Position numbers and translations under genes: made by a program
Notes under the pieces: model-generated
Seen by the model: only the letters and a program-made list of their open reading frames with translations
What the model was told of the DNA's origin: nothing
Database searches by the model: none
IMG/VR virus record: IMGVR_UViG_3300029922_000001
Span: 230,512-294,511 of that record
DNA from: a virus
Direction: 5' to 3' (one strand)
Length of the DNA: 64,000 nucleotides
Shown: positions 1,486 through 63,449 of the stretch, piece after piece
Layout: each line of letters starts with the position of its first letter
Position numbering within the stretch: the first letter of the stretch is position 1

Positions 1486-2070
1486 TTAATAATGGGTAAT
1501 AGATCGTTTTTCTAGTTCTTTTTCGATCATTGGATAAATCGTTTCAAGAGTTTTTCTGTGTTCTACTAAAACCGGGTTATAAGAGACTTCATATTTACAA
1601 AGAAAGTCTACGATTGCATTATCTACTTCAATTGATTTTTTTAGATCATGTAATCTATTGTCATTTTCAAATTTATTATTAGGATTTCTGGTAAGTAGAA
1701 TATTGTAATTATCAAATTCATTGAATAATTCTAAAATGAAATTATTCCAAGCCTTTTTTGGCTTGGGATTATAAAAAATACCAAGTAAGATAGGAGAATC
1801 AGTAATAACAATATCCACTTGTCCATGCGGTTGCATTTGTCTTTGAATTTGAGTTCCTGTAACATAAGCTTGGTTTTTAATTGTTTTTTCATCCTGATCA
1901 TAGACTAAATCTTTGGCAAATTCCCTAACTAATTCAACATTATAACTATTTAATTTTAATTCATAAAATAGACCAGCAGCGAGCGTACTTTTTCCACAGC
2001 TTGGTCCTCCGAAGAAGTTTATTATGAGAGACATACTTTTATTGTACAGCTTGTGGTATAGTTGATACAT
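1486..2070 (-). CDS. P-loop NTPase (NadR-kinase/AAA_28-like or dNMP-kinase-like); paralog of 53962..54582
   Basis: Walker A FFGGPSCGKSTLAAGLFYEL. Clear end-to-end similarity to the 53962..54582 product (IINIFGGPGIGKSTVAAGVFYKL...). Confidence 0.5.
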   Translation of the reverse strand: MYQLYHKLYNKSMSLIINFFGGPSCGKSTLAAGLFYELKLNSYNVELVREFAKDLVYDQDEKTIKNQAYVTGTQIQRQMQPHGQVDIVITDSPILLGIFYNPKPKKAWNNFILELFNEFDNYNILLTRNPNNKFENDNRLHDLKKSIEVDNAIVDFLCKYEVSYNPVLVEHRKTLETIYPMIEKELEKRSITHY

Positions 2071-3592
2071 GAAAGCACCCGTGCTAGACCTAATTAATTA
2101 CGATCCCTCTAAAGATTATCTAATCCCGCCAGATAAGTTGGCAATGTGGGCAAAACACAAAATGAATGTTTTGTTCATTGGTGAGACTGGTGTAGGAAAA
2201 ACCGCAATTATCATGTCGTTTTTTGAACAACTTGGATTGCGCTGCAAATATTTTTCTGCACCTACGCTTGAACCATATATTGACATTATTGGTGTTCCTC
2301 GTGAACATACAGACGCAGATGGTAATACGTTCCTAGAGTTTATTCAAAAAAGAGAATTTGCTAAGGATGAAATTGATGTTGTGTTTATTGATGAATTCAA
2401 TAGGGCACGTCCTGAAGTTCGTAATGCTGTTATGGAGTTCGTGCAATTTAAGAGTATCAACGGTAAGAAATACCACAATCTTAAAATGGTTTGGGCTGCA
2501 ATTAACCCTTACGATGAAGATGGCACTTATGATGTTGATCGTCTTGACCCTGCTATGATGGGAAGATTCCCTATTAAGCATTTCGTAGATAATCGTCCTT
2601 GTCCAGCTTATTTTGAAGCTGTATTTGGTAAATATATAGCGGATACTTCTATTGAGTGGTGGACTAAGTTGACAACAGATCATCCTAATACTTTGGCTTT
2701 GGTTCCACCTAGAACATTACATGATGCAGTTAGTTGGTATTTGCTTGGTGGAGACGTTAGAGACGTGATGCCAAAAGACACTAATATTAATTGCACTGAA
2801 TTTGTAACAACTCTCGCGGCTGATCCAATTGAGGTTCAGGTTGAAAAACTCTTTACTAGACAAGATCAAAATGCTACTAAAGCATTTTTGAATACTGCTA
2901 ATACATTGTTCAGAGCTAAAAGTATTATTGAATCAAAAGAAGAGTGGCTAAACTACTTCCTTCCTTTGGCACGTCCTGAAGTAATTTCGGGTTGGGCTAG
3001 AGAATCAGAAGTGGTGTTAGATAATCTAGTTCGTAATATCAATATTGGTCCTAATCGAAGTATCATTGATGATTTTATCAATTTTCAACCTGATCTTAAA
3101 CCAAAAATTAAGCAAGCTTGGGTAACAACACCATTTATTCAAGATCCAGCTTATAGAGTTTTGACAGAAAAGATTGTTTTTGATATCAATCTAGCTTGTT
3201 CGGAATTTTATGTTTCTGTACCAACAGGTAAAGTTAATTATTCTTTCACAGAACGATTAATTGCCCTCAAGGTAAAAACTAATAATTTCGAATATAAGAA
3301 TGATCAGGATAAAGCAGGAACATGGACGGCACTTTGTGCTTATGTTCCAGGTGATCTTTCGGAAGATGATGCTAAATTCGGTCTGTATGTTATGGATACA
3401 TTGGCATCTGCCAAACTTGGCTTCTTGGCTGAATTTGATAAATCTGTTTCTTTGTTGAATACTTTTGCTGCAACCCTGTATTTTAAGCATGGTTATACTC
3501 CTGAACAGATTTGGAAAATCTGTCCACACGTTGAACAAAGTAATAAGTCTTTGACTTCAGCTAAGCATACTAAAAGTATGTTTTTGAAATAA
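2069..3592 (+). CDS. AAA+ ATPase, AAA_5 / MoxR-like (dynein-related) family
   Basis: Walker A NVLFIGETGVGKTA; Walker B VVFIDEFNRA followed by sensor residues. 507 aa with a long C-terminal extension. Sits directly upstream of a VWA/zincin gene. Confidence 0.7.
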   Translation: MKAPVLDLINYDPSKDYLIPPDKLAMWAKHKMNVLFIGETGVGKTAIIMSFFEQLGLRCKYFSAPTLEPYIDIIGVPREHTDADGNTFLEFIQKREFAKDEIDVVFIDEFNRARPEVRNAVMEFVQFKSINGKKYHNLKMVWAAINPYDEDGTYDVDRLDPAMMGRFPIKHFVDNRPCPAYFEAVFGKYIADTSIEWWTKLTTDHPNTLALVPPRTLHDAVSWYLLGGDVRDVMPKDTNINCTEFVTTLAADPIEVQVEKLFTRQDQNATKAFLNTANTLFRAKSIIESKEEWLNYFLPLARPEVISGWARESEVVLDNLVRNINIGPNRSIIDDFINFQPDLKPKIKQAWVTTPFIQDPAYRVLTEKIVFDINLACSEFYVSVPTGKVNYSFTERLIALKVKTNNFEYKNDQDKAGTWTALCAYVPGDLSEDDAKFGLYVMDTLASAKLGFLAEFDKSVSLLNTFAATLYFKHGYTPEQIWKICPHVEQSNKSLTSAKHTKSMFLK

Positions 3593-3593
3593 G

Positions 3594-3620
3594 ATTAGAG
3601 GCTAAAATTTAGCCTCTAAT
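3594..3620. terminator. palindromic hairpin (ATTAGAGGCTAAA/TTTAGCCTCTAAT) between the AAA+ ATPase and VWA genes
   Basis: Near-perfect inverted repeat, 13-bp arms. Confidence 0.5.
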
Positions 3621-3636
3621 CTGGTATACTCTAATT

Positions 3637-5034
3637 ATGCAATTCCTTAATCCAGTGGAAACCACAAAGATTCTTCGCGCTCTTGAGCGTTATCATATTG
3701 TGTTTTCTAAAATATTTGAATTTGGTTATGTCAGTTTCGATAAATCTGTACCTAGAGCATGTTTAAGATTTAATAAAGAAACTGGTAAACCTTTTCAGTA
3801 TGTTTTTAACCCAGATTTTTGGGAGTCAATTGATTTTGATACTAAACTTTTTATTATTAAACACGAAACTGCACACTCATTTTTGAATCATTGTCAAAGG
3901 GGAAAACAAATTTTGGCATCTGGTGGGAAAATAGAGACTTTGAATGTAGCTATGGATCTTGCCGTTAATCACATGTTGGTTGATTGCTTTGGTGTTGACA
4001 GAGATAACGTTAAAGATGCTGATAGTTATTGTTGGGTTGATACGGTTTTTCCTGATGATAAAATCCCTGATGATCTACACTTTGAGGGTTATTATGCTTT
4101 ATTGTTAAAGAAAGAACAAGATAAAAACGACGATAAAGAAGAACAAGATAAGGGTGACAATAAGGGTGATCAAGAATCTTCCGAAGACGATAAAGGTTCA
4201 TCACAAGGATCTGATGGCGGTAAAGGTTCGTCTAAACCACAAATTGTAGATAGTCATGAATTTTTAGATGAACAAGCGCAAGAAGCGTTTGAGAAAGTTC
4301 TTGAAAGAGTCAAAAAGCAATTAAACGTGGATGAACTTAAAGATTTTAATGATAAGCTTCAACAACATGGTGATGGTCCAAGCGGAATTCAATTTGAAAT
4401 TGAATTACCAAAACTTAAACCCAACTTAAAGTGGCTTAATCTTGTTACAAAATTTAAGTATAAACACAACGAACTACATTATAAAATTAAACCTCAGTTT
4501 GTTTTTAAAAATAGGCGCATGAATATGTTGCCTAAAACAAATTTAATGCCTCAAGAATATGAAGTCAGAGAAATTAGTGAAAAGAAAACCATTATTGATG
4601 TTTGGTGTTTTTTAGATGTTTCCGGTTCATGTATTAGTTTTAAAGAACATTTTCTTTTAGCTGTTAAAACTTTTCCAGAAGAATATTTTAGATTGAGGGT
4701 TTTTGTTTTTGATACTACCGTATTAGAAATAGACTTAAAAAAAACTATATTACGTTGTGGTGGTGGAACACATTTTCATATTATTGAGGATAAAATTCAA
4801 CATATATGTAAAACTGAATCTTGTAATTATCCAAGTATGGTTGTAGTGGTTACTGACGGAGAAGGAACCAGGGTTAATCCACAATATCCAAAAAGATGGC
4901 ATTGGCTTTTGACTGATAAAGCGGCTTATAAGAAAAAAGGACTAACTTATATTCCTGTGAAGTCTCGAATTTTTGAATTGAAGGAATTCTTTGATATTCC
5001 TACAGTTCAAAAACAATTAAGAAAGAAGTTTTGA
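3637..5034 (+). CDS. VWA-domain protein with N-terminal HExxH zincin-like motif (DUF2201-like architecture)
   Basis: HETAH at the N-terminus. Central acidic KD/E-rich linker. C-terminal VWA MIDAS signature DVSGS ... VVVTDGEGT. Confidence 0.65.
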   Translation: MQFLNPVETTKILRALERYHIVFSKIFEFGYVSFDKSVPRACLRFNKETGKPFQYVFNPDFWESIDFDTKLFIIKHETAHSFLNHCQRGKQILASGGKIETLNVAMDLAVNHMLVDCFGVDRDNVKDADSYCWVDTVFPDDKIPDDLHFEGYYALLLKKEQDKNDDKEEQDKGDNKGDQESSEDDKGSSQGSDGGKGSSKPQIVDSHEFLDEQAQEAFEKVLERVKKQLNVDELKDFNDKLQQHGDGPSGIQFEIELPKLKPNLKWLNLVTKFKYKHNELHYKIKPQFVFKNRRMNMLPKTNLMPQEYEVREISEKKTIIDVWCFLDVSGSCISFKEHFLLAVKTFPEEYFRLRVFVFDTTVLEIDLKKTILRCGGGTHFHIIEDKIQHICKTESCNYPSMVVVVTDGEGTRVNPQYPKRWHWLLTDKAAYKKKGLTYIPVKSRIFELKEFFDIPTVQKQLRKKF

Positions 5035-6084
5035 TTCTTTCATACTACCTGGTGTTAGAATAATGTATTCAGAATTGTCTCTAAGTTCTGTAATTGTTCT
5101 AGCACCAGAATAGGTTAAACCAGAACGGATACCACCAACAATTTCTTCTACTACATCTTCAGTGTTGCCTTTATATAGAACTTGTTTATCAACACCTTCA
5201 GCGGCAATACCCTTTTTCATTCCACCGCGTAAATGTTCCTGTGCGGTCTTACTAGACATTCCATACATGATCTTGTAATGTTTGCCATCAGACTCAAAAA
5301 CATCGCCAGGAGAGGCACTAGTGCCACACAACATGCCACCTAAAGTAATAGTATCAGCACCAAAAGCTAAAGCCTTGACAATATCACCAGAAGTAGTAAA
5401 ACCACCATCACCAATAATTTTGACATTATTAAAACCACGATTCGTTAATGATTCTTTTGCTTCTATAATTGATGTAAGTGTTGGAACTCCAAAACCAGTT
5501 TGAGTTCTCGTACTACAAACTGAACCTCCACCGATTCCACAACGTATTGCATCAGCACCAGCGTCAGCAAGATATAAAGCACCTGAACCTGTAGCAACAT
5601 TTCCAGCAATAACTTCGATATCATAATGATCTTTAATGTATTTGATCATTTTCTTAACTGAGTTTGAGTGACCGTGCGCAATGTCAATTAAAATAGCATC
5701 GGGTTTAAGTTGAACGTCAGGAAAGCCGTAAGATGCATTCATGAGTTTATCCACTAGCTCACAATCTTCATCTTTAGTTCCTACAGATGGAACAATAATA
5801 GAATTAGGATATTTTACCCTAAAGTCCATTAAAGTAGCTACCATTTTGTCTGGATGCATAAATCTATGTAAGAACCCTAATGATCCTGTTTTATACATAG
5901 CTTCCAACATGTTCTCTTCAGTAACCGTTGACATATTTGTTGATATAATTGGAATATCTAATTTAATATTAGGTGTTAAATAAGTTGATACATCGGTTTT
6001 AAGTCTACTTTCAACATCGCTATATTGAGGGACTAATAGAATATCATTAAAAGATAGTGCTTTGTGATTGTATAGATTCGCCAT
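5017..6084 (-). CDS. IMP dehydrogenase / GMP reductase family enzyme (no CBS subdomain; GuaC-like length)
   Basis: Catalytic loop CGIGGGSVCSTR with the active-site Cys. TIM-barrel IMPDH/GMPR motifs throughout. 355 aa. Confidence 0.85.
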   Translation of the reverse strand: MANLYNHKALSFNDILLVPQYSDVESRLKTDVSTYLTPNIKLDIPIISTNMSTVTEENMLEAMYKTGSLGFLHRFMHPDKMVATLMDFRVKYPNSIIVPSVGTKDEDCELVDKLMNASYGFPDVQLKPDAILIDIAHGHSNSVKKMIKYIKDHYDIEVIAGNVATGSGALYLADAGADAIRCGIGGGSVCSTRTQTGFGVPTLTSIIEAKESLTNRGFNNVKIIGDGGFTTSGDIVKALAFGADTITLGGMLCGTSASPGDVFESDGKHYKIMYGMSSKTAQEHLRGGMKKGIAAEGVDKQVLYKGNTEDVVEEIVGGIRSGLTYSGARTITELRDNSEYIILTPGSMKESKLLS

Positions 6085-7942: not shown

Positions 7943-7980
7943 TTAGCTTCATAATATATAATTATATATTATGAAGCTAA
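7943..7980. terminator. perfect 34-38-nt AT-rich palindrome (AGCTTCATAATATATAATTATATATTATGAAGCT)
   Basis: Verified to be self-complementary. Lies between the two plus-strand genes 7650..7931 and 7971..8156. The ATG of the downstream gene is inside the hairpin. Confidence 0.5.
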
Positions 7981-8759: not shown

Positions 8760-8833
8760 TGGTCCCTCTGCTGAGAATCGAACTCAGACCGAACCGTTAT
8801 AAGCGGTTCCGCTCTACCTTGAGCTACAAAGGG
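8760..8833 (-). tRNA. tRNA, anticodon UAU (Ile); CCA encoded
   Basis: Cloverleaf folded by hand: acceptor CCCTTTG/CAGAGGG, T-arm CTGAG-TTCGATT-CTCAG, anticodon stem AACCG/CGGTT with loop CTTATAA. Discriminator A is followed by an encoded CCA, then CGAG. Confidence 0.75.
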
Positions 8834-8996
8834 GTGTTTGTAATGGGTGTGGGGTTGGTATACGCTAATTAGCGTATACTTATGAAGCCAAACGCAGGAG
8901 AGTTCTGGGAAATATCATTATAGATTTGATAGTTTGACTTCATTACGTATCTATTATACCAGCATTTAGAGGAAAATTGTCTGAATTTCTATGTGT

Positions 8997-21013: not shown

Positions 21014-21023
21014 AAACTCTCGG

Positions 21024-21099
21024 AGCGCGGAGGGAGAATCGAACTCAACCGAATAATGGTTTTGCAGACCATTCCAATTAACCACTCTGGTACCCGCGC
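21024..21099 (-). tRNA. tRNA-Cys (GCA)
   Basis: Acceptor GCGCGGG/TCCGCGC. D-arm CCAG-AGTGGTTAA-TTGG. Perfect anticodon stem ATGGT/ACCAT with loop CTGCAAA. Discriminator U, then CC, then GAG. The T-stem is weak. Confidence 0.7.
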
Positions 21100-21121
21100 A
21101 TATTTATCTCGCTGAGGTTCT

Positions 21122-21802
21122 TTATACCTCATATTGCTTCATTAATTCTGGATCACTTTGAGCCGCTATCCATTTATCATATTCTTCAATTTGCTCTTTA
21201 ATTTGTTCAGCACTATCTGCTGTTTTAGATTGGCAACTTTTAATGTCGTTTAATTTACTAAATAATGATTCCACAAGAGGATGTTTTGGTAAATAACATA
21301 TTCCCTTAGAAGCATAATAATCAATTAATTCTTTTTGTTTAAGTTTTGATTCTAATTTATTTTCTTCTGAACATGAACACTTTGGATGAAATGCGTTATA
21401 CATTCTCATATCTTCAATTCTATTTTCTTCAGTGTAAGCACTACAATTAAACAAAATTTCATCATCTTTATCATCCAACTCTAACAGATTAATTAATTCT
21501 TTAATTTTATAAGTTGGTCGATTTTGCTTGTACCAATCCGATTTTTCGTTCTCTTGATTATTTATTAATAAATTCTGTTTTAATGATGGTATTAATTTTT
21601 CAAAAACCTCATGTAGTGTACTTCCTTTAATTTGCACTCTACCAGCAGGTTGAAAATTTAAATTAAATTTAATATTGCCTTTTTTGGACATTGTTAAAGT
21701 CATATGATTCGTTCCACCCATGTTACTTAATCCATCTGGACAATTTTGTAAAAACTCTTTTAATATTTTTAATGTTTTATCTATATTCATTTCCTTTACC
21801 AA
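21122..21802 (-). CDS. hypothetical protein
   Basis: 226-aa ORF. Confidence 0.5.
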   Translation of the reverse strand: MVKEMNIDKTLKILKEFLQNCPDGLSNMGGTNHMTLTMSKKGNIKFNLNFQPAGRVQIKGSTLHEVFEKLIPSLKQNLLINNQENEKSDWYKQNRPTYKIKELINLLELDDKDDEILFNCSAYTEENRIEDMRMYNAFHPKCSCSEENKLESKLKQKELIDYYASKGICYLPKHPLVESLFSKLNDIKSCQSKTADSAEQIKEQIEEYDKWIAAQSDPELMKQYEV

Positions 21803-22137
21803 GATATTGTTAACTGATAACTTTCATAACTTTCATATCCTTCGTATTCACGATCCTTTACAAGAACAACACCATATTCTTCGTCTTCAAAAAACTTTTT
21901 AACATTACAGGCAATTTGATAATTATATAATGTCTCCGTATGACATTCATACTCACCCCTTTTGGCATGTTTTTCAATTAATTTTTTACATTCATCAATG
22001 GTAGTTATTTCTAACTGTTGAAGTCGTAGTTTTTCAGATTGAGCGAATTGTCTTTCTTCTTCTTCAAGAGCAAGTCTTCTTGCTTCAATTTGTTCTTTAG
22101 CTTCTTGAGTTAATCTTCTTGCTTCTTGGATGTTCAT
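21796..22137 (-). CDS. hypothetical coiled-coil protein
   Basis: 113-aa ORF with a charged heptad-like N-terminus. Confidence 0.45.
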   Translation of the reverse strand: MNIQEARRLTQEAKEQIEARRLALEEEERQFAQSEKLRLQQLEITTIDECKKLIEKHAKRGEYECHTETLYNYQIACNVKKFFEDEEYGVVLVKDREYEGYESYESYQLTISW

Positions 22138-22145
22138 TGTAACTA

Positions 22146-22293
22146 TTATACCTTACGACGAATTCGTATGAGAGTATTATCTACTTCTTTTCTTGTGATA
22201 CCTAAAAAAGCAGCAATTGCACGATAAGATTTATTTAAACCATAAGCAATATAAACCTTGGTTTCATTTTGAGTTAATTCTAAATTATTCATA
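22146..22293 (-). CDS. small (about 48 aa) LuxR/sigma-70 region-4-type helix-turn-helix protein; not in the supplied ORF track
   Basis: Hand translation gives MNNLELTQNETKVYIAYGLNKSYRAIAAFLGITRKEVDNTLIRIRRKV. This matches the LuxR-type HTH consensus (LT..E..V......G.s..eIA..LgIs..TV...l.rI..Kl). Coordinates are +/-2 nt. Confidence 0.4.
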
Positions 22294-22318
22294 AGTGTAT
22301 TATAGCATATTTTCTCGC

Positions 22319-22407
22319 GGGAGCTTAGAGATTCGAACTCTAAAGGCGCTTTTTACACGCCTAGCTGTTTTCAAGACAGTTTACCGTCACCAATGGCAGA
22401 ACTCCCG
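22319..22407 (-). tRNA. tRNA-Ser (UGA), class II
   Basis: Acceptor GGGAGTT/AGCTCCC. Anticodon loop CTTGAAA. Variable arm GGCG-TGTAAAAAG-CGCC. T-arm TAGAG-TTCGAAT-CTCTA. Discriminator G, then CGAG. Confidence 0.7.
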
Positions 22408-22516
22408 TATTATTTCGCGGTAAGTAAAATATTCGAATTCGATTCAAAGAATATGAAGACAAACTTTGTTTAATTATTGATTCTATTTTAGGTAGACTTA
22501 ACAATTAAACATCTCG

Positions 22517-22602
22517 AAGACACCAGAATCGAACTGGACTCGCTTTTTACACGAGCGAACAACTTTCCAGGTTGCCGTCATCACCATCAGACATTATCTT
22601 CC
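22517..22602 (-). tRNA. tRNA-Ser (GGA), class II
   Basis: Acceptor GAAGATA/TGTCTTC. Anticodon stem GCAAC/GTTGT with loop CTGGAAA. Variable arm is homologous to that of the Ser(UGA) gene (..GTGTAAAAAGCG..). T-loop TTCGATT. Confidence 0.6.
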
Positions 22603-22615
22603 ATATTATCTCGGA

Positions 22616-22688
22616 GCGCCAAATTGGAATCGAACCAATTTCCTATTGCTTACCAAGCAATCGTTCACCCACATGAACTTTAAGCGCA
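22616..22688 (-). tRNA. tRNA-Thr (GGU)
   Basis: D-arm GTTC/GAAC. Perfect anticodon stem ATTGC/GCAAT with loop TTGGTAA. T-arm ATTGG-TTCGATT-CCAAT. U6:U67 mismatch in the acceptor stem. Discriminator T, then CC, then GAG. Confidence 0.7.
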
Positions 22689-22701
22689 TATATCTCGTGG
22701 A

Positions 22702-22772
22702 GGCTCAATAGAGAATCAAACTCTACTCTGCGGTTTACAAAACCGCTGCATCGTCACAATGCTTTAAAGCCA
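22702..22772 (-). tRNA. tRNA-Thr (UGU); CCA encoded (22699..22701)
   Basis: Acceptor GGCTTTA/TTGAGCC (U:U at 6:67). D-arm GCAT/ATGC. Anticodon stem GCGGT/ACCGC with loop TTTGTAA. T-arm TAGAG-TTTGATT-CTCTA. Confidence 0.7.
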
Positions 22773-22785
22773 TATTATCTCGTAA

Positions 22786-22884
22786 GCCTAGTATCTGATT
22801 CGAACAGATGATGTTTGTATTCTTACTTGTTCTATTTTTTAACACAACAAGGTAAGTGCAATCGACCGCTATGCAAACTAGGCA
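22786..22884 (-). tRNA. intron-containing tRNA (99 nt), probable anticodon UGU (Thr); duplicate of 22702..22772 carrying an insert
   Basis: Perfect acceptor GCCTAGT/ACTAGGC. T-arm ATCTG-TTCGAAT-CAGAT. Anticodon stem CTTAC/GTAAG flanks CTTGT + 18 nt + AA. The insert extends the anticodon helix (CTTGTT/AACAAG). Confidence 0.5.
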
Positions 22885-22898
22885 TTTTATCTCGTGGA

Positions 22899-22984
22899 GG
22901 AAGGCAGCGGGATCGAACCGCAGACGTATTTCAGTCCGTATAGTTTAGCAAACTATCCTAATCGCCGTTTTAGATTACCTTCCA
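22899..22984 (-). tRNA. tRNA-Ser (GCU), class II; CCA encoded (22896..22898)
   Basis: Acceptor GGAAGGT/GCCTTCC. Anticodon stem ATAGT/ACTAT with loop TTGCTAA. Long variable arm. T-loop TTCGATC. Confidence 0.65.
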
Positions 22985-22992
22985 TTATCTCG

Positions 22993-23076
22993 GCTAACGG
23001 GGAGATTCAAACTCCCGAAGGTTTTCACCGATGCATTACGAGTGCATTCCAATTGATCAACTATGGGACGTTAGCA
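22993..23076 (-). tRNA. class II-like tRNA with anticodon CGU (Thr by anticodon; identity uncertain)
   Basis: Perfect acceptor GCTAACG/CGTTAGC. Perfect anticodon stem ATGCA/TGCAT with loop CTCGTAA. Variable arm GGT-GAAA-ACC. T-arm GGGAG-TTTGAAT-CTCCC. Confidence 0.5.
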
Positions 23077-25893: not shown

Positions 25894-26883
25894 TTATACT
25901 TGAGCAAGTTCGGCTTGTAGCTCTTTAATGCGCTTTTGGAGTTCAAGTTTCTTTTTAAGTGTCGCTTCTTCTCTAAGCAAAGCTTGGAATTCAGCATCAA
26001 CTTCTTCCACTGCAACAGTCTCTAAAGCAACATGCTTCTTTATGGCTTTAGCTGCTTTAGGCATTTCTGTAGCCAAGATTGGTACATATCCTCTTAGTAT
26101 AAGAGTAAGACTTGTTGCATGATCTTCAATATCAATCCATTCTTTTTGACCAAAGGTTTGATTGGATCTGCTACCTTCAACAGTGCAAACATCTTGTTCT
26201 CTTGATTCATTTAAAGATTTTGGCATAGCATTCGCAAATGAGTCTAAAGAATCCATTGACATGCTTGAAGCGGAATATGTTGGAGAACCAAAGCTTAATG
26301 AATTCAGTGAATTTACTGAATCTGAGCATAATCCTCTTACATTGCTTTTCATGGAAGATTGACCAATTAAAGCATTATTACTACCACACCAGACTTCATC
26401 ATGTCGTCTAGGGTAATGCTTGTAAGGGTATGAATAATCACGATACCAAGGATATGAATAATCATGATAATGATGATGATCTACTACGATTGGAATGTAG
26501 ACTGGTTGTGGTTTTTCTTTTTCTAACCAGAAGAAGGCTTCAACAACACCTTTGGAGCGGTCTTCATTAGAACCATTTTTTCCAAAATCAATAGCGTCAT
26601 TACTGTCTAAAGCAGCTAATTTAAAGCATTTGTTGGTTTCATAGAAGCGTTCAAGATCAATTGCGCTGTTAGCGTTAATAATATATCCATCACCGGATAC
26701 ATTTTCCCCGTCAATATGAATTTTGACCAAGGCTCTACGATTGTTTTTGTTTCTGAGGCGTAAACTATATTCTGATCCGAATGGAACTAGTACAGAATGA
26801 TCGTTTCTCTCTGGGAGAAAGTCGTTTTGATTTTTGAGCTTGATAGCAAGCACGAAGTTTTTGTTATACATATTTTTAACCAT
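25894..26883 (-). CDS. hypothetical protein with His/Tyr-rich low-complexity segment and C-terminal coiled coil
   Basis: The ORF is open to 26949. An internal Met at about 26883 avoids overlapping the divergent PARP gene. Contains HHHYHDYSYPWYRDYSYPYKHY. Confidence 0.5.
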   Translation of the reverse strand: MVKNMYNKNFVLAIKLKNQNDFLPERNDHSVLVPFGSEYSLRLRNKNNRRALVKIHIDGENVSGDGYIINANSAIDLERFYETNKCFKLAALDSNDAIDFGKNGSNEDRSKGVVEAFFWLEKEKPQPVYIPIVVDHHHYHDYSYPWYRDYSYPYKHYPRRHDEVWCGSNNALIGQSSMKSNVRGLCSDSVNSLNSLSFGSPTYSASSMSMDSLDSFANAMPKSLNESREQDVCTVEGSRSNQTFGQKEWIDIEDHATSLTLILRGYVPILATEMPKAAKAIKKHVALETVAVEEVDAEFQALLREEATLKKKLELQKRIKELQAELAQV

Positions 26884-27081
26884 TATAATCCTAACTCTTG
26901 TCCTCATGAGAGCGTGATTCGGCACCTTAATGGCGAGTGCCAAGGACAATTCTATTATACACCCGTTTTGAGGTTTTTTACCTTCGGATTAAAAAACAGT
27001 CCAAACACAATAAAATTAATTATAATAAATTACCTTGTGAATAGGCTTGACAGTCTGAGGAATAGGAGGTATTATAACAAC

Positions 27082-28380
27082 ATGAGTAGCATTCTCGCTA
27101 GTAAGAAATACATTTATACGGATATCCAGGCGAATAACAATAAGTTCTGGAATATTGACCGCTATGACGATCATACAGTAATTACACGTTGGGGACGTGT
27201 TGGCGACAAAGAACAAAGCAAATCTTTCCCACATGGATCTGAAACTTCCGCAATTGCTTTTTTTAATCAAAAGTGTAGTGAAAAATCCAAGAAGGGTTAT
27301 ACCGAACAACGAACCATTGAATCCAATACTACCGTAAAGCAAACAACCGTTGCTTCATCCAATCTTGAAAGTATTGCTAAAAGACAGATTCAAACTAATT
27401 CACCTGAACTAGATGCTTTGATTTCAAGGCTTACCAAAGCTAACATTCATAGCATTGTCGCAAACAGTAATATTAGCTATAACGATACAACTGGTTTGTT
27501 TTCAACGCCATTAGGAATTATTGATGAAGATGCGATTTTGGAAGCTAGAGAACTTCTAGTGTCCATTAATTCTATTGTTCTCAATAGAGACTTTGGAAAT
27601 AAGGATTTTGCTGGAATCACCAATAAGTATTTTAGAATCGTTCCTACAGTTATCGGTAGATATCGTCAAGAACCTCAAGACCTATTCCCTAATAAGGAAA
27701 CCGTTGTAAAGCAAAATGATCTTTTGGACTCACTTGAAGTCAGCTTGCAAACTGCTAAGGCAACCCCTGTAACTGCTACAACATCTGTTGAACCTGAAAA
27801 GAACATCTTTAATGTTAAGCTTCATGTGGTTGATGATCTTCCTGTTATTCAACGAATTACAGCCAAATATCAATCAACAATGAATCGTGGTCATCAGTGT
27901 TCCCATCTTGGTGTTAAGCGTGTTTATGAATTAGAAATTGGTGCTATGAAGACTGCTTTCGAAAATAAGGGTAAGCAAATTGGTGGTATTCAAGAGTTGT
28001 GGCACGGTTCAAGAGTTGCCAATATTCTTTCTATTCTCTATAAGGGAATGATTATCCCACCTTCTAATTCTAGTTTTGTGGCTGGTCGTTTGTTTGGAGA
28101 CGGTTTGTATTTTGCCAACCAAAGCACAAAGTCTCTTAATTATTCTTATGGATATTGGGATGCTAAAGGCAAGGACGAAAATTGCTTTATGTTCCTTTGT
28201 GATGTAGCTATGGGCAAGCACTATACTCCTAAGTATTTACAATCCAATATTCCTGCTGGATATGATAGTTTCTGGGCTAAGGCTGGTATTTCTGGCGTAC
28301 AGAATGATGAAATCATCGTTCCACGTCTTTATCAAGCCAATCCTAGATATTTGATCGAATTCTCACCAGGTGGTAGATAA
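27082..28380 (+). CDS. poly(ADP-ribose) polymerase (WGR domain + PARP regulatory/catalytic domains)
   Basis: WGR domain FWNIDRYDDHTVITRWGRVGDKEQSKS. Catalytic region HGSRVANILSILYKGM ... GDGLYFANQSTKSLNYS ... E in the C-terminus. True ATG is at 27082; the longer track ORF from 26797 overlaps the neighbouring gene. Confidence 0.85.
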   Translation: MSSILASKKYIYTDIQANNNKFWNIDRYDDHTVITRWGRVGDKEQSKSFPHGSETSAIAFFNQKCSEKSKKGYTEQRTIESNTTVKQTTVASSNLESIAKRQIQTNSPELDALISRLTKANIHSIVANSNISYNDTTGLFSTPLGIIDEDAILEARELLVSINSIVLNRDFGNKDFAGITNKYFRIVPTVIGRYRQEPQDLFPNKETVVKQNDLLDSLEVSLQTAKATPVTATTSVEPEKNIFNVKLHVVDDLPVIQRITAKYQSTMNRGHQCSHLGVKRVYELEIGAMKTAFENKGKQIGGIQELWHGSRVANILSILYKGMIIPPSNSSFVAGRLFGDGLYFANQSTKSLNYSYGYWDAKGKDENCFMFLCDVAMGKHYTPKYLQSNIPAGYDSFWAKAGISGVQNDEIIVPRLYQANPRYLIEFSPGGR

Positions 28381-34303: not shown

Positions 34304-35779
34304 ATGAATCAGTTATGGTATACTAACTCCATGTTTGACACAGATCGTTTAATTCATTTAGAAAAGCTACAAGAAGCTGGTTTAAATCCATTTGATAATT
34401 ATGGATTTAAGATGACTTCACCAATTGGGTTATATCTTGATACTTTTAATGTATTGATTAATGCTGTTTGTTTTGATAATACACATAGTTTATGTGGTCG
34501 CATTATTTCTATGCGTATTATGGGTAATATGGCTTTTGTTGATATTTCCGATGGTTCTCACAAGGTCCAGGCTGTTTTCCGTAAGAACCTAATGGATGCT
34601 GACACTTATAAGGCATTAAGATACCTAGATGAAGGTGATCATATTGGCGTGACTGGCAATCCATTTCTTACCCAAGCTGGTGAGAAGTCAATTCTTGTTA
34701 CAGAAATTAAGGTTCTAAGTAAGTGTCTTATCCCTTTACCAATTGGTAAGAGGAAGGATGGGGAAGTCTTTGATGCAGTTGTAGATCCAGATATTAGGCT
34801 TAGGCATCGTCATATTGACCTTGTAGCCAATCCAGATAATAGGGCGATGTTAATTGCACGTTCAAAGATGGTAAGCTGTATTAGGCGATTTTTAGATCAA
34901 GAAGATTTTCTTGAAGTTGAAACACCTTTACTAACTGAGGTTGCTGGTGGAGCAAGTGCTAAGACATTTGATACTCATTATAATGCTTATGATTTAGATA
35001 TGCATCTTCGTATTTCTTTGGAAATTCCTTTGAAGAAGTTGATTTGTGGTGATATTCCTGCCGTTTATGAAATTGGTAAGGTTTTCCGCAATGAAGGTGC
35101 TGACGCAACTCATAATCCAGAATTTACACTTTTGGAATGGTATCGTGCGTATTCAACACCAGAAGAGGAAATGCAAAGGGTTCAAGATTTAGTTTCATAT
35201 TTGATGCAAAAGTGGGATGCTGATCCTGCATGGGATGTAATTACTGTGCGTGATGCTATTTTAACCTATGTGCCTGATGTTTCCTGGTATGATCTTGATG
35301 TTATTGAGAAAATGAGAGAACATGCTCGTAGAAATGGAATCCATGTAACAGATCAAGATACTATGGGGAAGATTGAAGAAAAGCTAGTCGCTAAGTTCGT
35401 TGAGCCTAATCTGTTATATCCCACATTCTTAACAGAACATCATATCAGTAATTCACCTTTAGCTAGAACAGCACCAGGGAAGCCTGATCGTGCTTATAGA
35501 TTTGAAGCATATATTAATGGTTATGAAATCGCTAATGGTTATTCTGAGTTAAACAATGCAGTTGAACAAAAGGAACGATTAGAGGATCAAGTAGCTCAAA
35601 GAAATGGTGGAGACGCTGAAGCACAACCTTATGATCAAGATTTTATTTATGCTCTTGCCTCCGGTTGCCCTGCCGTAACGGGCGTGGGAATCGGTCTAGA
35701 TAGATTGGCAATGGTATTATATGGAGCAACACAAATTAGGCAAGTAATATTTTTCCCAACAATGAAGCATAGGAGTTAA
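34304..35779 (+). CDS. lysS: lysyl-tRNA synthetase (class IIb)
   Basis: N-terminal OB anticodon-binding domain. Motif 2 FRNEGADATHNPEFTLLEWYRAY is LysRS-specific (HNPEFT). Motif 3 GVGIGLDRLAMVL. Confidence 0.9.
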   Translation: MNQLWYTNSMFDTDRLIHLEKLQEAGLNPFDNYGFKMTSPIGLYLDTFNVLINAVCFDNTHSLCGRIISMRIMGNMAFVDISDGSHKVQAVFRKNLMDADTYKALRYLDEGDHIGVTGNPFLTQAGEKSILVTEIKVLSKCLIPLPIGKRKDGEVFDAVVDPDIRLRHRHIDLVANPDNRAMLIARSKMVSCIRRFLDQEDFLEVETPLLTEVAGGASAKTFDTHYNAYDLDMHLRISLEIPLKKLICGDIPAVYEIGKVFRNEGADATHNPEFTLLEWYRAYSTPEEEMQRVQDLVSYLMQKWDADPAWDVITVRDAILTYVPDVSWYDLDVIEKMREHARRNGIHVTDQDTMGKIEEKLVAKFVEPNLLYPTFLTEHHISNSPLARTAPGKPDRAYRFEAYINGYEIANGYSELNNAVEQKERLEDQVAQRNGGDAEAQPYDQDFIYALASGCPAVTGVGIGLDRLAMVLYGATQIRQVIFFPTMKHRS

Positions 35780-44557: not shown

Positions 44558-44567
44558 ATTTATCTCG

Positions 44568-44651
44568 TCCCGGCGAGTGGACTCGAACCACCACGCCCTT
44601 TCAGGCAACAGATTTTGAGTCTGCCGCATCTACCAATTACACCACACCGGG
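44568..44651 (-). tRNA. tRNA-Leu (CAA), class II
   Basis: Acceptor CCCGGTG/CGCCGGG. Anticodon stem GCAGA/TCTGT with loop CTCAAAA. Variable arm GCC-TGAAAG-GGC. T-arm GGTGG-TTCGAGT-CCACT. Discriminator A, then CGAG. Confidence 0.75.
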
Positions 44652-44871
44652 ATATTTCTCGTATAAGAAATTAATTCTTATTTTGTGAATCAAGTTGTCT
44701 TACTCTACTAAATAAAGCATCTCTCATTTCTTTGTTTTCACTTACTTCTTTAGCGTATGCACCCATCATATTTCTAAACATTTTTTGACCTTCTTCAGTA
44801 TTCATTGCTGATTCAATTATTTTCATTTTTTCAGGACTTGTTATAATCATATTAATTCTCCAATATCTCGG

Positions 44872-44973
44872 TGAGCAAACAGGGACTTGAACCCTGATGA
44901 CATTTTACTGTCGATGGGTTAGCAAAATTCTGATCTTGCTAAGCCCATTGCGTCTACATTTCGCCATTCGCCC
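44872..44973 (-). tRNA. intron-containing tRNA-Leu (UAG), class II, 102 nt with an 18-nt insert in the anticodon loop
   Basis: Acceptor GGGCGAA/TTTGCTC. Anticodon stem ATGGG/CCCAT flanks CTTAG + 18 nt + AA. The insert forms the TTAGCAA/TTGCTAA helix with the anticodon. Variable arm GACA-GTAAAA-TGTC. T-arm CAGGG-TTCAAGT-CCCTG. Confidence 0.55.
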
Positions 44974-44982
44974 ATATTCTCG

Positions 44983-45068
44983 TGCGGAGTAAAAGATTTG
45001 AACTTTCACCTGTTGATAAGACAGAATGGGACCTTAGCCCATCGCGGCTACCATTACGCCAACCCCGC
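44983..45068 (-). tRNA. tRNA-Leu (AAG), class II
   Basis: Acceptor GCGGGGT/ACTCCGC. D-arm GCG/CGC. Perfect anticodon stem ATGGG/CCCAT with loop CTAAGGT. Variable arm CTGT-CTTATCA-ACAG. T-arm GAAAG-TTCAAAT-CTTTT. Confidence 0.75.
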
Positions 45069-45077
45069 ATATTCTCG

Positions 45078-45159
45078 TCCGGGCGAGAGGGTTTGAACCT
45101 CCATGTCTTGCGACGGCAGGTTTTAAACCTGCTGCGGCTACCAATTTCGCCACACCCGG
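45078..45159 (-). tRNA. tRNA-Leu (UAA), class II
   Basis: Acceptor CCGGGTG/CGCCCGG. Anticodon stem GCAGG/CCTGC with loop TTTAAAA. Variable arm GTC-GCAA-GAC. T-arm GGAGG-TTCAAAC-CCTCT. Confidence 0.75.
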
Positions 45160-45417: not shown

Positions 45418-46764
45418 GTGAAACAAATTATTACAGCTAAATTAAAATTAGAAACAAATAAAGAACAATTTAAAGAATTAACTAATCTTAGTTTAGCTTA
45501 TTGTGGCGCTTTGAATTTTGGCTCTAATAAAGCCTTTGAATTAGACAAAACTACTAATGCTAACTTATTGCACAAAAGTATATATCGAGAATGTCGTGAT
45601 AAATTTGGATTACCATCACAATTAGCTTGTAGCGTTTCTAGATATGTTACTGCTTCTTATAAAACATTGTGGACAATTACCAATAAAAATATTAAAGCAA
45701 GAAAAAACAAAGAAACTAAGAGAGTTTATAAAGGACTGAATAAAGCTCCAAAATATATATCAAGAACGACTATGTTTCAATATGGTAGAGATTTTACATT
45801 CAAGAAGGATCAACAAATTAGTATTATTACTCTTAATGGAAGAATTCTTCTAGATTATAAAGGATGGAATAAACATCTTAATTTAATTAAAGATGAAAAT
45901 ACCAAAATTGGTGGAGCTAAACTTTATTATGATAAAGCTAAGAAAACTTTCTATCTCTTAGTTAGTTTAGAAATAGAAACACAAGAAGAAAAACAAATTA
46001 ACACAATAGGTATTGATTTGGGTCAAAGATATTTGGCTGTGGTAACTGATACACAAGATAATACATTGTTTATTCCTGGTAAGGAATGTATTAATCAAGT
46101 TGGAAAATATCAACGAGTTCGTAGTAGTCTTCAAAAAAAGATTAAAACGAATAAGAAAAATGGTAAAGGCACTCGTTCTATAACTAGAAAATTAATCCAA
46201 GTTAAAGGACAAGAGAGACGGTATAGATTATCATTAAATCATCAAACAGCAAGTTCGATATTACAAAGATTTCCTAATTCAAATATAGGATTAGAAAATC
46301 TTAAAGATATTAGAACAAGAACAGAAAGACATAGCAGTAAAAAAGATAGCAAAAAAAGAAAAGAAGCTAATCGTAATAAAGCTTCTTGGTCTTTTAATGA
46401 GTTACAACAATTAATAGAATATAAAGCTAATTTATATGGTAGTAAAATATTTAAAGTAGATGCCCATTATACATCTCAAATGTGTACTAAATGTGGTTAT
46501 ACTTCTAAAGAAAACAGACCTAAAAGTGGCTTGAATTTTATTTGTTGTAATTGTAATTTTAAATTACATGCTGATTTGATTGGAGCTAGAAATATAGCTA
46601 TGAGAACATTGTTATCTAGACAAGATTTAGATAATAAGGGGCATTTATCAATTGTCCCAGTAAGCGGCAAAGCCGCTTTAGATACCTCGAACAGTGAAGT
46701 TAAAGCGGAATCCTTGAAAAAGTATTCTGAATTGAGATGGAGTTCGGAGGCAAACTTAACTTAA
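45418..46764 (+). CDS. tnpB: TnpB (IS200/IS605 OrfB) RuvC-like RNA-guided-nuclease family protein (Fanzor/TnpB-like)
   Basis: RuvC-I IGIDLGQRYLAVVTD. RuvC-II ..SWSFNELQQLIEYKA. Zinc finger CTKCGY ... CCNCNF. RuvC-III HADLIGARNIAMR. GTG start in the track. Confidence 0.8.
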   Translation: MKQIITAKLKLETNKEQFKELTNLSLAYCGALNFGSNKAFELDKTTNANLLHKSIYRECRDKFGLPSQLACSVSRYVTASYKTLWTITNKNIKARKNKETKRVYKGLNKAPKYISRTTMFQYGRDFTFKKDQQISIITLNGRILLDYKGWNKHLNLIKDENTKIGGAKLYYDKAKKTFYLLVSLEIETQEEKQINTIGIDLGQRYLAVVTDTQDNTLFIPGKECINQVGKYQRVRSSLQKKIKTNKKNGKGTRSITRKLIQVKGQERRYRLSLNHQTASSILQRFPNSNIGLENLKDIRTRTERHSSKKDSKKRKEANRNKASWSFNELQQLIEYKANLYGSKIFKVDAHYTSQMCTKCGYTSKENRPKSGLNFICCNCNFKLHADLIGARNIAMRTLLSRQDLDNKGHLSIVPVSGKAALDTSNSEVKAESLKKYSELRWSSEANLT

Positions 46765-58294: not shown

Positions 58295-58576
58295 ATGTTT
58301 AAATTCCTTAGAAATATATTTAGCAAAGAAGCTGAAGCTTCATGGGTACACTGTGGTACCTATTTAGACACCAATCATTATTACGCAGCAGATGATTGCT
58401 ATTGTGTGAACTGTTTACCTGATAGCCCAGCTTACTCTCTGGTTAAGGTGTTTAAAAAACACACTAGAGATAATAAATGGCAGATGAAGGAAACTATATT
58501 CGCATTATCTCTCGAAGAGTATCAAGGATATTCAAAGAAAATCCCTAACACTCTGATGCCACCACCTATTAGTTGA
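58295..58576 (+). CDS. small Cys-rich protein
   Basis: WVHCGTYLDTNHYYAADDCYCVNC. Confidence 0.4.
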   Translation: MFKFLRNIFSKEAEASWVHCGTYLDTNHYYAADDCYCVNCLPDSPAYSLVKVFKKHTRDNKWQMKETIFALSLEEYQGYSKKIPNTLMPPPIS

Positions 58577-63010: not shown

Positions 63011-63421
63011 GGGTTGACTAATTCTGTGAAGATGGTGGTATAATAGATACGTGATAACAAGTGGGCTCGTAAGGGAATCGACATGTTGCATATATTGATG
63101 AACTTGAGTGAGAGATTACCCTTGGCTCTCTAAAAATGGGTAGAAAACATAAACGGCAAATCATATGCTTATGTAGGTTAATTCCTACCGCAAAAAATAA
63201 AGGTTAGTTGAGGACACTTTATTGAGCGTTGAAAAAATTCAACTACGCTATTAGGGTTGGTGGACCTTGGACCTGAAATAGTTAAATTAATCAAGTATCC
63301 GGTTGCAGCGGTTTGATTTATACCAACATGCTTCCTATTAAATAAATCTACGCTCATAAAAAATAATTATTGGTATATCAGTAATGGAAACGGCTTCGAG
63401 TGCCGTCGGGTCCACCCGCGA

Positions 63422-63449
63422 AACATCCACCTTAATTAAGGTGGATGTT
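63422..63449. terminator. perfect palindrome AACATCCACCTTAATTAAGGTGGATGTT
   Basis: Lies 3' of the minus-strand gene 63502..63987. Confidence 0.5.

Follow-up and report, generated by a model that had tools for sequence, protein, structure and literature searches.

The association of a MoxR ATPase with a VWA protein carrying an N-terminal metallopeptidase is already published for jumbo phages. In the case of the Agrobacterium jumbo phage Atu_ph07, Iyer et al. (2021, Viruses 13:63; PMC7824862) described the pair formed by ASV44729.1 (MoxR) and ASV44728.2 (metallopeptidase-vWA). A homologous pair has long been listed among the N4-like core genes, with gp24 (AAA ATPase) and gp25 (vWFA) of N4 present in all N4-like phages (PMC4193335), although the literature gives gp25 no other label than 'vWFA' or the erroneous 'HNH endonuclease'. 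The Bacillus jumbo phage AR9 (and PBS1) shows the same layout, an ATPase gene (gp028) followed by one for a protein matching both PF13203 and PF09967 (gp029). Our literature searches turned up no experimental work on a gene pair of this kind.

Outside phages, the bacterial MoxR AAA+/VWA chaperones NorQ-NorD and CbbQ-CbbO likewise combine a motor with a VWA/MIDAS partner arranged as N-domain, linker and VWA, and NorQD works by finger-in-pore binding and linker stretching (PMC13036017). NorD and CbbO lack an HExxH peptidase domain, and what they bring about is the insertion of metal or the reactivation of Rubisco. A viral chaperone pair, p618 (MoxR) and p892 (VWA), is known from the Acidianus two-tailed virus (ATV), as cited in PMC7159879 and PMC7824862. 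This archaeal virus pair also lacks a peptidase domain.

The locus studied here lies in a window of 64,000 nucleotides, the whole stretch of DNA that was analysed, which comes from a huge phage of about 520 kb; a protein identical to the gene 1 product (P0020) is encoded on a 521,591-bp contig. Both ORFs and their shared orientation were confirmed exactly as given in a preliminary description made from the sequence; the spacer measures 44 nt (3593-3636). They form a real two-gene unit, a MoxR-type motor followed by a protein in which a putative zinc protease domain is coupled with a VWA domain that would serve for docking, with the following features:

2069..3592, + strand: gene 1, MoxR-class AAA+ ATPase, ORF of 507 aa
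2126..2743, + strand: AAA+ module of gene 1 (residues ~20-225), alpha/beta core and helical lid by DSSP on the AF2 model
2180-2203, + strand: Walker A, GETGVGKT, from the translation
2378-2398, + strand: Walker B, VVFIDEF, from the translation
2444-2467, + strand: pre-sensor-1 insert QFKSINGK, within the AAA+ module
2786..3553, + strand: all-alpha C-terminal extension of gene 1 (residues ~240-495), predicted in the AF2 model
3592..3622, + strand: hairpin with a perfect 14-15-bp stem and a tiny loop, predicted by folding
3637..5034, + strand: gene 2, zincin (DUF2201_N), linker and VWA/MIDAS, ORF of 465 aa
3637..4116, + strand: zincin-like metallopeptidase domain of gene 2 (residues 1-160), from the AF2 model and conservation
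3862-3891, + strand: HETAHSFLNH, i.e. H76-E77-x-x-H80 followed by H85, from the translation
3943-3972, + strand: conserved N103, D107 and N111 of the zincin domain
4117..4593, + strand: linker of gene 2 (residues 161-319), from the AF2 model and conservation
4594..4986, + strand: VWA domain with a complete MIDAS, from predicted fold and motifs
4615-4629, + strand: MIDAS motif DVSGS, D327-x-S329-x-S331, from the translation
4759-4770, + strand: MIDAS T378 within GGGT, from the translation
4852-4869, + strand: MIDAS D407 within TDGEGT, from the translation

Gene 1 is confirmed as an AAA+ ATPase of the MoxR class, and none of its catalytic motifs is disrupted. It scores above the Pfam cut-offs for AAA_3 (30.4 bits, cut-off 27), AAA (29.9 bits, cut-off 21.2) and AAA_5 (24.7 bits, cut-off 22), and matches the PHROG family phrog_1297 'ATPase' (7e-14). 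In addition to the Walker motifs, its translation contains sensor 1 (AAINP), the Arg finger (MMGRF), which sits before strand 5, and sensor 2 (PPRTL). Among 78 homologues, the invariant residues are G38, G41, G43 and K44 (Walker A), D108 and E109 (Walker B), N146 (sensor 1), R166 (Arg finger) and R215 (sensor 2), together with R112, Q126, S129, I130, N131 and G132. The last five of these fall in the pre-sensor-1 insert (residues 126-139), placed before strand 4 in the AF2 model (pLDDT 87.8), while a beta-hairpin (76-81/87-92, spanning residues 76-92) is predicted as a helix-2 insert between strands 2 and 3. The modelled protein thus appears to possess both inserts of AAA+ clade 7, the helix-2 and the pre-sensor-1 beta-hairpin. 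In a Foldseek search of the PDB, the best matches were NorQ (9qh4, E 2.5e-8), CbbQ (6l1q, 6.4e-7) and MoxR (2r44, 7.5e-6), with TM-target values of 0.59-0.66 for the NorQ and CbbQ folds; in a profile search, the nearest PDB sequence was MoxR 2r44 (E 1.6e-5).

These Foldseek matches span just ~260-280 columns, roughly what the AAA+ module of NorQ/CbbQ measures (targets of 235-267 aa). The remainder is the C-terminal extension, modelled with helices only and with pLDDT mostly 84-96, for which profile searches returned only marginal matches to generic helical proteins. Relatives are shorter (356 aa in N4 gp24-like proteins, 399 aa in AR9 gp028, and 417 aa in Atu_ph07, which lacks most of this ~270-aa helical extension), and the extension stays unaligned in hhalign comparisons with the N4-like, AR9 and Atu_ph07 ATPases.

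Gene 2 joins, in a single ORF, the HETAH motif and the VWA MIDAS that the preliminary description had read in it. Its N-terminal domain matches Pfam DUF2201_N (PF13203; 31.9 bits, cut-off 23.2, 1.3e-7), as do 22/22 family members tested, among which secondary matches to Peptidase_M78 (6), PhageMetallopep (3) and M48 (2) were noticed. The domain is modelled with three strands, the HExxH helix (67-82) and two further helices (85-94 and 99-118), at pLDDT 80-92. In an alignment of 164 homologues (median identity 33%), H76, H80, D327, S329, S331 and D407 are conserved in all 164, E77 in 162 and H85 in 163, so that the HExxH and MIDAS residues, whose variation would have spoken against the proposed architecture, are kept in 162-164 sequences. 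H85 (163/164) and D107 (164/164) are candidate third zinc ligands. A match of gene 2 residues 54-428 to phrog_1314 (1.9e-31) brings with it the label 'HNH endonuclease', frequent on this family, which is an annotation error.

The VWA domain of gene 2 is divergent, being predicted from fold and motifs and falling below Pfam's own threshold: no Pfam VWA model scored above cut-off, VWA_CoxE (PF05762) reaching 19.8 bits (cut-off 26.4). Of the profile matches suggested beforehand, AAA_5 and PF13203 were recovered, but DUF2201 (PF09967) had no match in gene 2 and was matched by just 3/22 family members; AR9 gp029, unlike gene 2, does reach this VWA-like model. The long, flexible linker includes a variable, acidic and disordered stretch (residues ~159-200), and pLDDT drops below 50 at residues 169-199, 245-253, 279-287 and 304-316. 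It nevertheless harbours conserved sites, namely D205-x-H207 (nt 4249-4257; D205 in 157/164, H207 in 162/164), W266, K-N-R293-R294 (nt 4507-4518; R293 in 157/164, R294 in 159/164) and P305. The AF2 model of gene 2 is confident for the domains and moderate overall (pLDDT 73.6, pTM 0.52).

NorQ-NorD and CbbQ-CbbO are likely to provide the mechanistic template for the pair, by analogy, with sequence identities of 13-20% and no NorD-like finger identified in gene 2. In an alternative reading, the phage proteins would insert a metal cofactor or activate an enzyme, in the manner of NorQD, CbbQO or CobST, and so mature or reactivate a phage or host metalloenzyme, for instance ribonucleotide reductase, the HExxH domain then handling metal or binding the target instead of cleaving it. 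We consider this quite improbable. The retention of the catalytic glutamate E77 in 162/164 sequences alongside the histidines is expected of a hydrolase, whereas mere metal binding would not require it. All family members match models of the peptidase clan (DUF2201_N, and secondarily M78, M48 and PhageMetallopep), and we found no particular metalloenzyme gene that regularly accompanies the pair.

With regard to the spacer, the hairpin that had been proposed to separate the two genes is real: its arms (3592-3606 and 3608-3622) are 100% complementary, its folding energy is -21.6 kcal/mol (z -6.8), and 0/200 shuffled sequences fold as well. It has no U-tract, and no intrinsic terminator was called at this site. 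A 91%-identical relative (locus L092) keeps it with one stem and one loop change, but it is absent from a 58%-identical one (L094), and in most family loci the two genes abut or overlap. On these comparisons, the hairpin is lineage-specific and lies outside the module proper.

The two genes themselves make up a conserved, tightly linked module. The survey of related viral genomes called for at the outset found both in 79/79 testable IMG/VR loci, gene 1 lying directly upstream on the same strand in ~74 of the 79, with an intergenic gap of at most 10 nt in 60/73 same-strand loci. The family is large: grouped at 50% identity, it comprises about 14,000 clusters, 845 of which match at E <= 1e-30. 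Among the genomes of 185,579 species, only four MAG contigs carry the subfamily, with both genes in all four, and it is essentially restricted to viruses. This near absence from cellular genomes is unlike a recent co-option from bacteria; nor is the zincin-VWA fusion unusual in a virus, as the preliminary description, which spoke of a co-opted module, had stated, given this linkage and the homologous pairs of N4, AR9, phiRSL1, BCSR5 and Atu_ph07.

The same distribution bears on the defence association that the preliminary description mentioned for MoxR-VWA pairs in general. MoxR-vWA couples are the cores of bacterial conflict systems (PMC7159879), huge phages carry many conflict genes, and among the genes of the window are a PARP-like one and two for TnpB; a phage-borne superinfection-exclusion or counter-defence cassette related to the ternary type of Kaur et al. 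(2020) may thus be envisaged. Such a function is highly improbable. A PADLOC search gave no match for either protein, no conserved third component (VMAP, iSTAND, FtsH or beta-propeller) adjoins the pair, and bpMoxR appeared just as a sub-threshold match in distant relatives. Furthermore, cellular genomes hardly contain the subfamily, and the pair belongs to the core gene set of N4-like phages, unlike accessory defence cargo.

The nearest cultured relatives by BLAST are ORF091/ORF092 of Ralstonia phage phiRSL1 and QRE00205/QRE00206 of Burkholderia phage BCSR5, which share PHROGs 1297 and 1314 and DUF2201_N with the window pair. Their genes overlap or abut, their ATPases (419-477 aa, compared with 507 for gene 1) are 40-42% identical to gene 1, and their partners are larger than gene 2 (570-602 aa versus 465). 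More distant links emerged from hhalign. Gene 2 aligned with Atu_ph07 ASV44728.2 over 330 columns (98.3%, E 1e-14), zincin and VWA both included, and gene 1 with ASV44729.1 over core and lid (94.4%, E 9e-8). Architecture and gene order are the same in these two jumbo/huge phages, but at just ~22-24% identity, BLAST does not link the pairs. The gp25-like protein of the N4-like phage LUZ7 aligned with gene 2 over 348 columns including HExxH and MIDAS (99.1%, E 4e-19), and its gp24-like protein with gene 1 (92.5%); for AR9, the values were 97.3% (gene 1 and gp028) and 99.1% (gene 2 and gp029). In LUZ7 the genes are co-oriented neighbours, as in the window, but with a small ORF in between, and N4-like phages (Schitoviridae) are ~70-kb podoviruses, in contrast to the huge phage considered here. 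On these profile comparisons, the window pair belongs with the N4 gp24/gp25-type pair (PHROG 1297 and 1314), being homologous and adjacent.

The cultured relatives also give indications about timing. In AR9, an early promoter is annotated immediately upstream of gp028, and N4 gp24/gp25 are middle transcripts (PMC4193335). The neighbours of the pair are a helicase and a DNA polymerase in LUZ7, and RnlA, glutaredoxin, DNA polymerases and a ligase in Atu_ph07. In the window, the pair has a kinase-like AAA_28 gene as a neighbour, and also one for a GMP reductase/IMPDH, which is conserved in relatives. Because of this early and middle expression and of these replication and nucleotide-metabolism neighbours, the pair may act in the pre-replicative or replicative phase and not solely in virion maturation, a timing that is based on distant relatives (20-25% identity) and database annotation, not on the phage of the window. 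The target would then come from the host, or be a phage protein with no structural role.

This has to be weighed against virion assembly, which PMC7824862 proposed for the homologous pair of Atu_ph07, and in which the pair would help fold and assemble structural proteins and the zincin would process them. The role of ATV p618/p892 in tail development, cited in PMC7159879, offers a viral MoxR/VWA precedent, and ATV ORF892 matches weakly in structure (E 9e-4). In the main IMG/VR clade, moreover, a T4_baseplate-like gene (PF12322, 1.3e-20) precedes the pair by two genes on the same strand; 43 of the related loci have such a gene upstream. None of the conserved neighbours of that clade is present in the window, however, where the major head protein gene (58569-59789), the sole recognisable structural gene, is 54 kb from the pair, and the extracellular tail development of ATV has no counterpart in the window phage. 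The early or middle transcription and the neighbouring replication genes seen in cultured phages speak against virion assembly as the only role, and we regard this proposal as rather unlikely.

We therefore favour, with a probability of roughly 60%, the view that the pair is the huge-phage version of the N4 gp24/gp25-type MoxR ATPase with its dedicated zincin-VWA co-factor, and that it may have an early or replicative role in remodelling and cleavage. By analogy with NorQ-NorD, CbbQ-CbbO and Rea1, gene 1 would form a hexameric ring on or in which the VWA domain of gene 2 would dock, its MIDAS gripping an acidic residue of the target protein. ATP-driven rotation or pulling could then remodel the target before the tethered zincin cuts it; alternatively, the ATP-driven motion could stretch the gene 2 linker and switch the peptidase on. 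The ATP-driven remodelling or protease activation proposed initially is, on these analogies, a reasonable suggestion for the pair.

A more specific form of the second option would make gene 2 an ATP-gated zymogen. D205-x-H207 is positioned just past the variable acidic stretch of the linker, and might occupy the zinc site as an aspartate switch until the MoxR ring turns the VWA domain, stretches the linker in the way NorQ acts on NorD, and thereby pulls the motif out. A specific target, from the host or the phage, would then be cleaved only at a defined point of early infection. We hold this to be improbable, but if true, it would represent a new mode of protease control by a MoxR motor.

As a discovery, the pair itself matters little; its weight comes from the size of the family, the near-invariance of catalytic and MIDAS residues and the near-constant linkage. 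The present analysis adds the BLAST-invisible links from the huge-phage subfamily to N4, AR9 and Atu_ph07, the exposure of the 'HNH endonuclease' label as an error, and a timing and context that fit poorly with virion assembly, the sole functional proposal published. N4, AR9 and phiRSL1 are tractable model phages for the function of the pair, and the zymogen mechanism, should it prove true, would provide a function for two genes that belong to the core of N4-like phages and of many jumbo phages.

Two ORFs were called on the plus strand, exactly where the preliminary description had placed them, and codon translation confirmed every motif that it had quoted for both genes.

2069-3592, plus strand: gene 1, 507 aa, MoxR-class AAA+ ATPase
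3637-5034, plus strand: gene 2, 465 aa, zincin-linker-VWA protein

Gene 1 carries the Walker A motif GETGVGKT and the Walker B motif VVFIDEF. The Pfam models AAA_3, AAA and AAA_5 each exceed their cut-off across residues ~30-173, PHROGs assigns the protein to phrog_1297 ('ATPase'), and the best solved sequence relative of the family profile is the MoxR protein 2r44. In a 78-sequence alignment, the Walker A Lys, Walker B D-E, sensor-1 Asn, Arg finger (just before strand 5) and sensor-2 Arg are invariant. The AlphaFold model (pLDDT 87.8) contains an AAA+ core, a helix-2 insert hairpin, a pre-sensor-1 insert bearing an invariant QFKSINGK loop, a helical lid and, at residues ~240-495, an all-helical extension for which no match was found. 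In fold comparison the model comes closest to NorQ (E 2.5e-8, TM-target 0.62-0.66) and CbbQ, with dynein AAA modules and 2r44 ranking next; NorQ and CbbQ are MoxR-class motors working with VWA partners. The ATPases of N4-like phages, AR9 and Atu_ph07 are much shorter than gene 1 (356, 399 and 417 aa, respectively), and their alignments to its family stop within the AAA+ core and lid; the ATPase of the huge-phage subfamily bears an extra C-terminal helical region. A gene 1 homologue of 636 aa, P0139, matches the Hint/intein Pfam domains PF07591 and PF14890, which suggests that an intein is inserted in the ATPase of some phages.

Gene 2 displays the motifs HETAH (extended, HETAHSFLNH), DVSGS, GGGT and TDGEGT. 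The Pfam assignments expected for the pair held in part: AAA_5 for gene 1 and DUF2201_N (PF13203, 'putative metallopeptidase') for gene 2 are above cut-off, while among the VWA models VWA_CoxE stays under it and PF09967 gives no match. NCBIfam returned nothing useful for either gene, and the gene 2 profile found no match in a PDB sequence search. The protein belongs to phrog_1314 (1.9e-31, spanning both domains). Its AlphaFold model (pLDDT 73.6 overall, 80-92 within domains) shows an N-terminal domain of three strands followed by the HExxH helix and a compact alpha/beta C-terminal domain. The long linker between them, whose first part is acidic, disordered and of variable length, includes the conserved motifs D205-x-H207, W266, K-N-R-R (293-294) and P305. 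Conservation was counted over 164 members of the family (median identity to the window protein, 33%): H76, H80, D107, N111 and the MIDAS residues D327, S329, S331 and D407 are present in 164/164, H85 in 163, E77 in 162 and T378 in 159. To judge from these counts, both the HExxH and the MIDAS sites are under strong selection, and lack of conservation, which the preliminary description had named as grounds for rejecting its reading, is not what was found. Pfam, alignments and models together bear out its domain interpretation, a MoxR-type ATPase with a zincin-VWA partner.

That phrog_1314 bears the name 'HNH endonuclease' is evidently a mistake of annotation. In the AR9 record (NC_031039.1), gp029 has this label too, alongside a note of pfam13203 and pfam09967, and the label is widespread on the family, occurring in many N4-like Pseudomonas phages as well as in PHROG 1314. 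No HNH domain was detected in the zincin-VWA proteins examined, and the label looks like a propagated mis-annotation.

With regard to the linkage of the two genes, a pattern scan of IMG/VR yielded 112 gene 2 relatives, of which 80 loci were retrieved and 79 were testable. This survey, proposed in the preliminary description, found a gene 1 homologue encoded in the flank at 79/79 loci. About 74 of them have this homologue as the co-directional gene immediately upstream, in three the genes diverge, and in two ~1.7 kb separates the ORFs. Across the same-strand loci the intergenic gap has a median of -1 nt, and in 60 of 73 it does not exceed 10 nt; in the uncultured 595-kb phage LR756511 the homologues overlap by 4 nt. 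The pair is thus a unit, and clustering of all neighbouring ORFs revealed it as the only one common to the window and its relatives' loci. In one lineage, a T4_baseplate-like protein, a PDDEXK nuclease, a glutamine amidotransferase, a CTP synthase and RNR recur as neighbours; the possibility that a third gene or a substrate gene is conserved beside the pair was dismissed, since such clusters are lineage-specific and have no counterpart in the window.

The spacer of the window pair measures 44 nt and holds the hairpin noticed earlier, which proved perfect (arms 3592-3606 and 3608-3622, dG -21.6 kcal/mol, z -6.8 versus shuffles). The 91%-identical relative retains it, the 58%-identical one has lost it, and loci with overlapping genes lack it. 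That it serves the module as an integral regulatory element was therefore rejected, as only the nearest relative keeps the hairpin and in most loci the genes overlap; the structure is a local feature of the window's lineage, and a consensus scan for terminators did not find it terminator-like. The window contains at least four perfect intergenic hairpins, and its phage may use them as general punctuation between genes. Two other perfect intergenic palindromes, at 7943-7980 and 8858-8879 (arms of 22 nt and 14 nt), are similar to that between gene 1 and gene 2.

The presence of such a pair in a viral genome had been thought unusual, a view that the relatives contradict. By BLAST, gene 1 has relatives in two cultured jumbo phages, phiRSL1 and BCSR5, where the gene after the ATPase is again a DUF2201_N/phrog_1314 protein. 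For gene 2, LR756511 was the sole BLAST match among phages, and profile methods were needed to connect it with cultured phages. A second large-database search with profile A1 gained just two distant proteins. The distant family member P0140 retrieves 89 phage records, including N4-like podoviruses ('N4 gp25-like protein'), AR9/PBS1, and Vibrio and Salmonella jumbo phages. Profile-profile comparison established full-length homology of the gene 2 family with the LUZ7 gp25-like protein (99.1%, E 4e-19) and AR9 gp029 (99.1%); the gene 1 family scored 92.5% with gp24-like proteins and 97.3% with AR9 gp028. Full-length matches in a viral structure library came from cyanophage S-TIM5, PBS1 and N4-like phages of Pseudomonas, Ruegeria and Klebsiella. 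The pair discussed by Iyer et al. was located in Atu_ph07 and is homologous to that of the window (partner 98.3%, E 1e-14; ATPase 94.4%, E 9e-8). In N4-like phages, gp24 (AAA ATPase) and gp25 (vWFA) are among 14 core genes (PMC4193335; PMC2784036); no functional or essentiality data on them were found in the literature, nor anything relevant on DUF2201. The window pair adds a divergent member, from a huge-phage subfamily, to a class of phage gene pairs that is already known and published.

An exhaustive profile search collected 13,987 cluster representatives at E <= 1e-3, 4,687 at <= 1e-10 and 845 at <= 1e-30. Scanning 185,579 prokaryotic species, one genome each, revealed only four loci of the subfamily (L095-L098), on short contigs of MAGs labelled Mollicutes, Parcubacteria and Woesearchaeota. 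Since all four lie on MAG contigs of tiny-genome lineages and also carry gene 1, they are probably phage contigs mis-binned into MAGs, which is their simplest account. The subfamily is thus one carried by phages, not one recently borrowed from bacteria.

The window DNA is that of a phage of the 'huge phage' kind, with ~33% GC; no catalogued phage matched it at the nucleotide level, and a 521,591-bp contig carries a protein identical to gene 1. Besides a major-head-protein homologue, it encodes the following.

1486-2070, minus strand: AAA_28 kinase-like gene (longest ORF), divergent from gene 1
5017-6084, minus strand: GMP reductase/IMPDH-family gene (6.8e-94), convergent with gene 2
8760-8833, 21022-23075 and 44567-45159, all minus strand: eleven tRNA genes
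26797-28380, plus strand: PARP-like ORF, 527 aa, eukaryote-like PARP1 layout
34304-35779, plus strand: class II aminoacyl-tRNA synthetase, Asp/Asn/Lys type (tRNA-synt_2 3e-67, OB anticodon-binding domain)
45418-46764, plus strand, and 52685-53794, minus strand: two TnpB/Cas12f-like ORFs (OrfB_IS605 and Cas12f1-like_TNB; phrog_506)
63063-63416, plus strand: one tmRNA, tag peptide GKSYAYVG*

Among the tRNA genes are a cluster of six for Ser/Thr, three for Leu and one for Ile (anticodon UAU), and a perfect palindrome with 17-nt arms (63422-63449) lies immediately 3' of the tmRNA. The PARP-like ORF combines WGR (7e-16), PARP regulatory (1e-5) and PARP catalytic (4e-23) domains, and matches phrog_23333 at 1e-58. 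The GMP reductase/IMPDH gene overlaps the 3' end of gene 2 by 18 nt, and its convergent arrangement is kept in the close relatives L092 (7447-8511), L093 (4057-5121) and L094 (3205-4791). In L094, its larger size (528 aa) and an HNH_3 match suggest the insertion of a homing-endonuclease-like segment. On the other side, the longest-ORF start of the AAA_28 gene overlaps the gene 1 ATG at 2069 (plus strand), the shared sequence being CATG. Since the L092 homologue has 182 aa, translation probably begins at Met 13 (about nt 2034), and two promoters would then have to fit into just ~34 nt between the divergent genes.

As to how the pair may act, the observed basis is a MoxR-class motor, an HExxH site with its catalytic Glu and a MIDAS site, all intact by sequence, together with near-obligate linkage, usually with overlapping genes. 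In the NorQ-NorD pair, the concave face of the hexamer houses the VWA domain, and a finger extends to the helix-2 inserts within the pore; as ATP drives the subunits to move, the VWA turns relative to the NorD N-terminal domain, which stretches the linker between domains and remodels the target, a mode that the authors argue to be general for AAA+/VWA pairs, including CbbQO and Rea1 (PMC13036017). Gene 2 and NorD have a common layout of N-domain, linker and VWA, the N-domain of gene 2 being a zincin instead; a NorQD-like role in cofactor insertion appears unlikely. The most economical model would have two steps: the MIDAS site of gene 2 would capture an acidic residue of the target, and ring action would then either expose the target to the tethered peptidase or pull the linker to activate the peptidase. 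Defence association had also been hinted at, but PADLOC matched neither protein and no third component stands beside the pair, so that a defence-type conflict system is very improbable.

The sole published proposal for the process served is virion assembly and processing of structural proteins, by analogy with ATV (Iyer et al., PMC7824862). It is the main rival to our reading, and we consider it possible but doubtful. The AR9 pair lies behind an annotated early promoter; this evidence rests on the GenBank annotation, since genes 028 and 029 do not figure in the main text of the paper on the AR9 transcriptome. N4 gp24 and gp25 are middle transcripts (PMC4193335). Helicase and DNA polymerase genes adjoin the pair in LUZ7, and its surroundings in Atu_ph07 are genes for RNA ligase, glutaredoxin, DNA polymerase and ligase. 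The AAA_28 and GMP reductase/IMPDH genes flank the pair in the window and in its close relatives, and in the window it is far from the head gene. The evidence gathered points at least as strongly to processes other than virion assembly. On account of this timing and these neighbours, we favour, with a probability of roughly 0.6, capture followed by ring action in a pre-replicative or replicative role, which would be exerted on a non-structural or host target. What remains of interest is the function of this very common and strongly conserved pair, for which the evidence of timing and context calls virion assembly into question.
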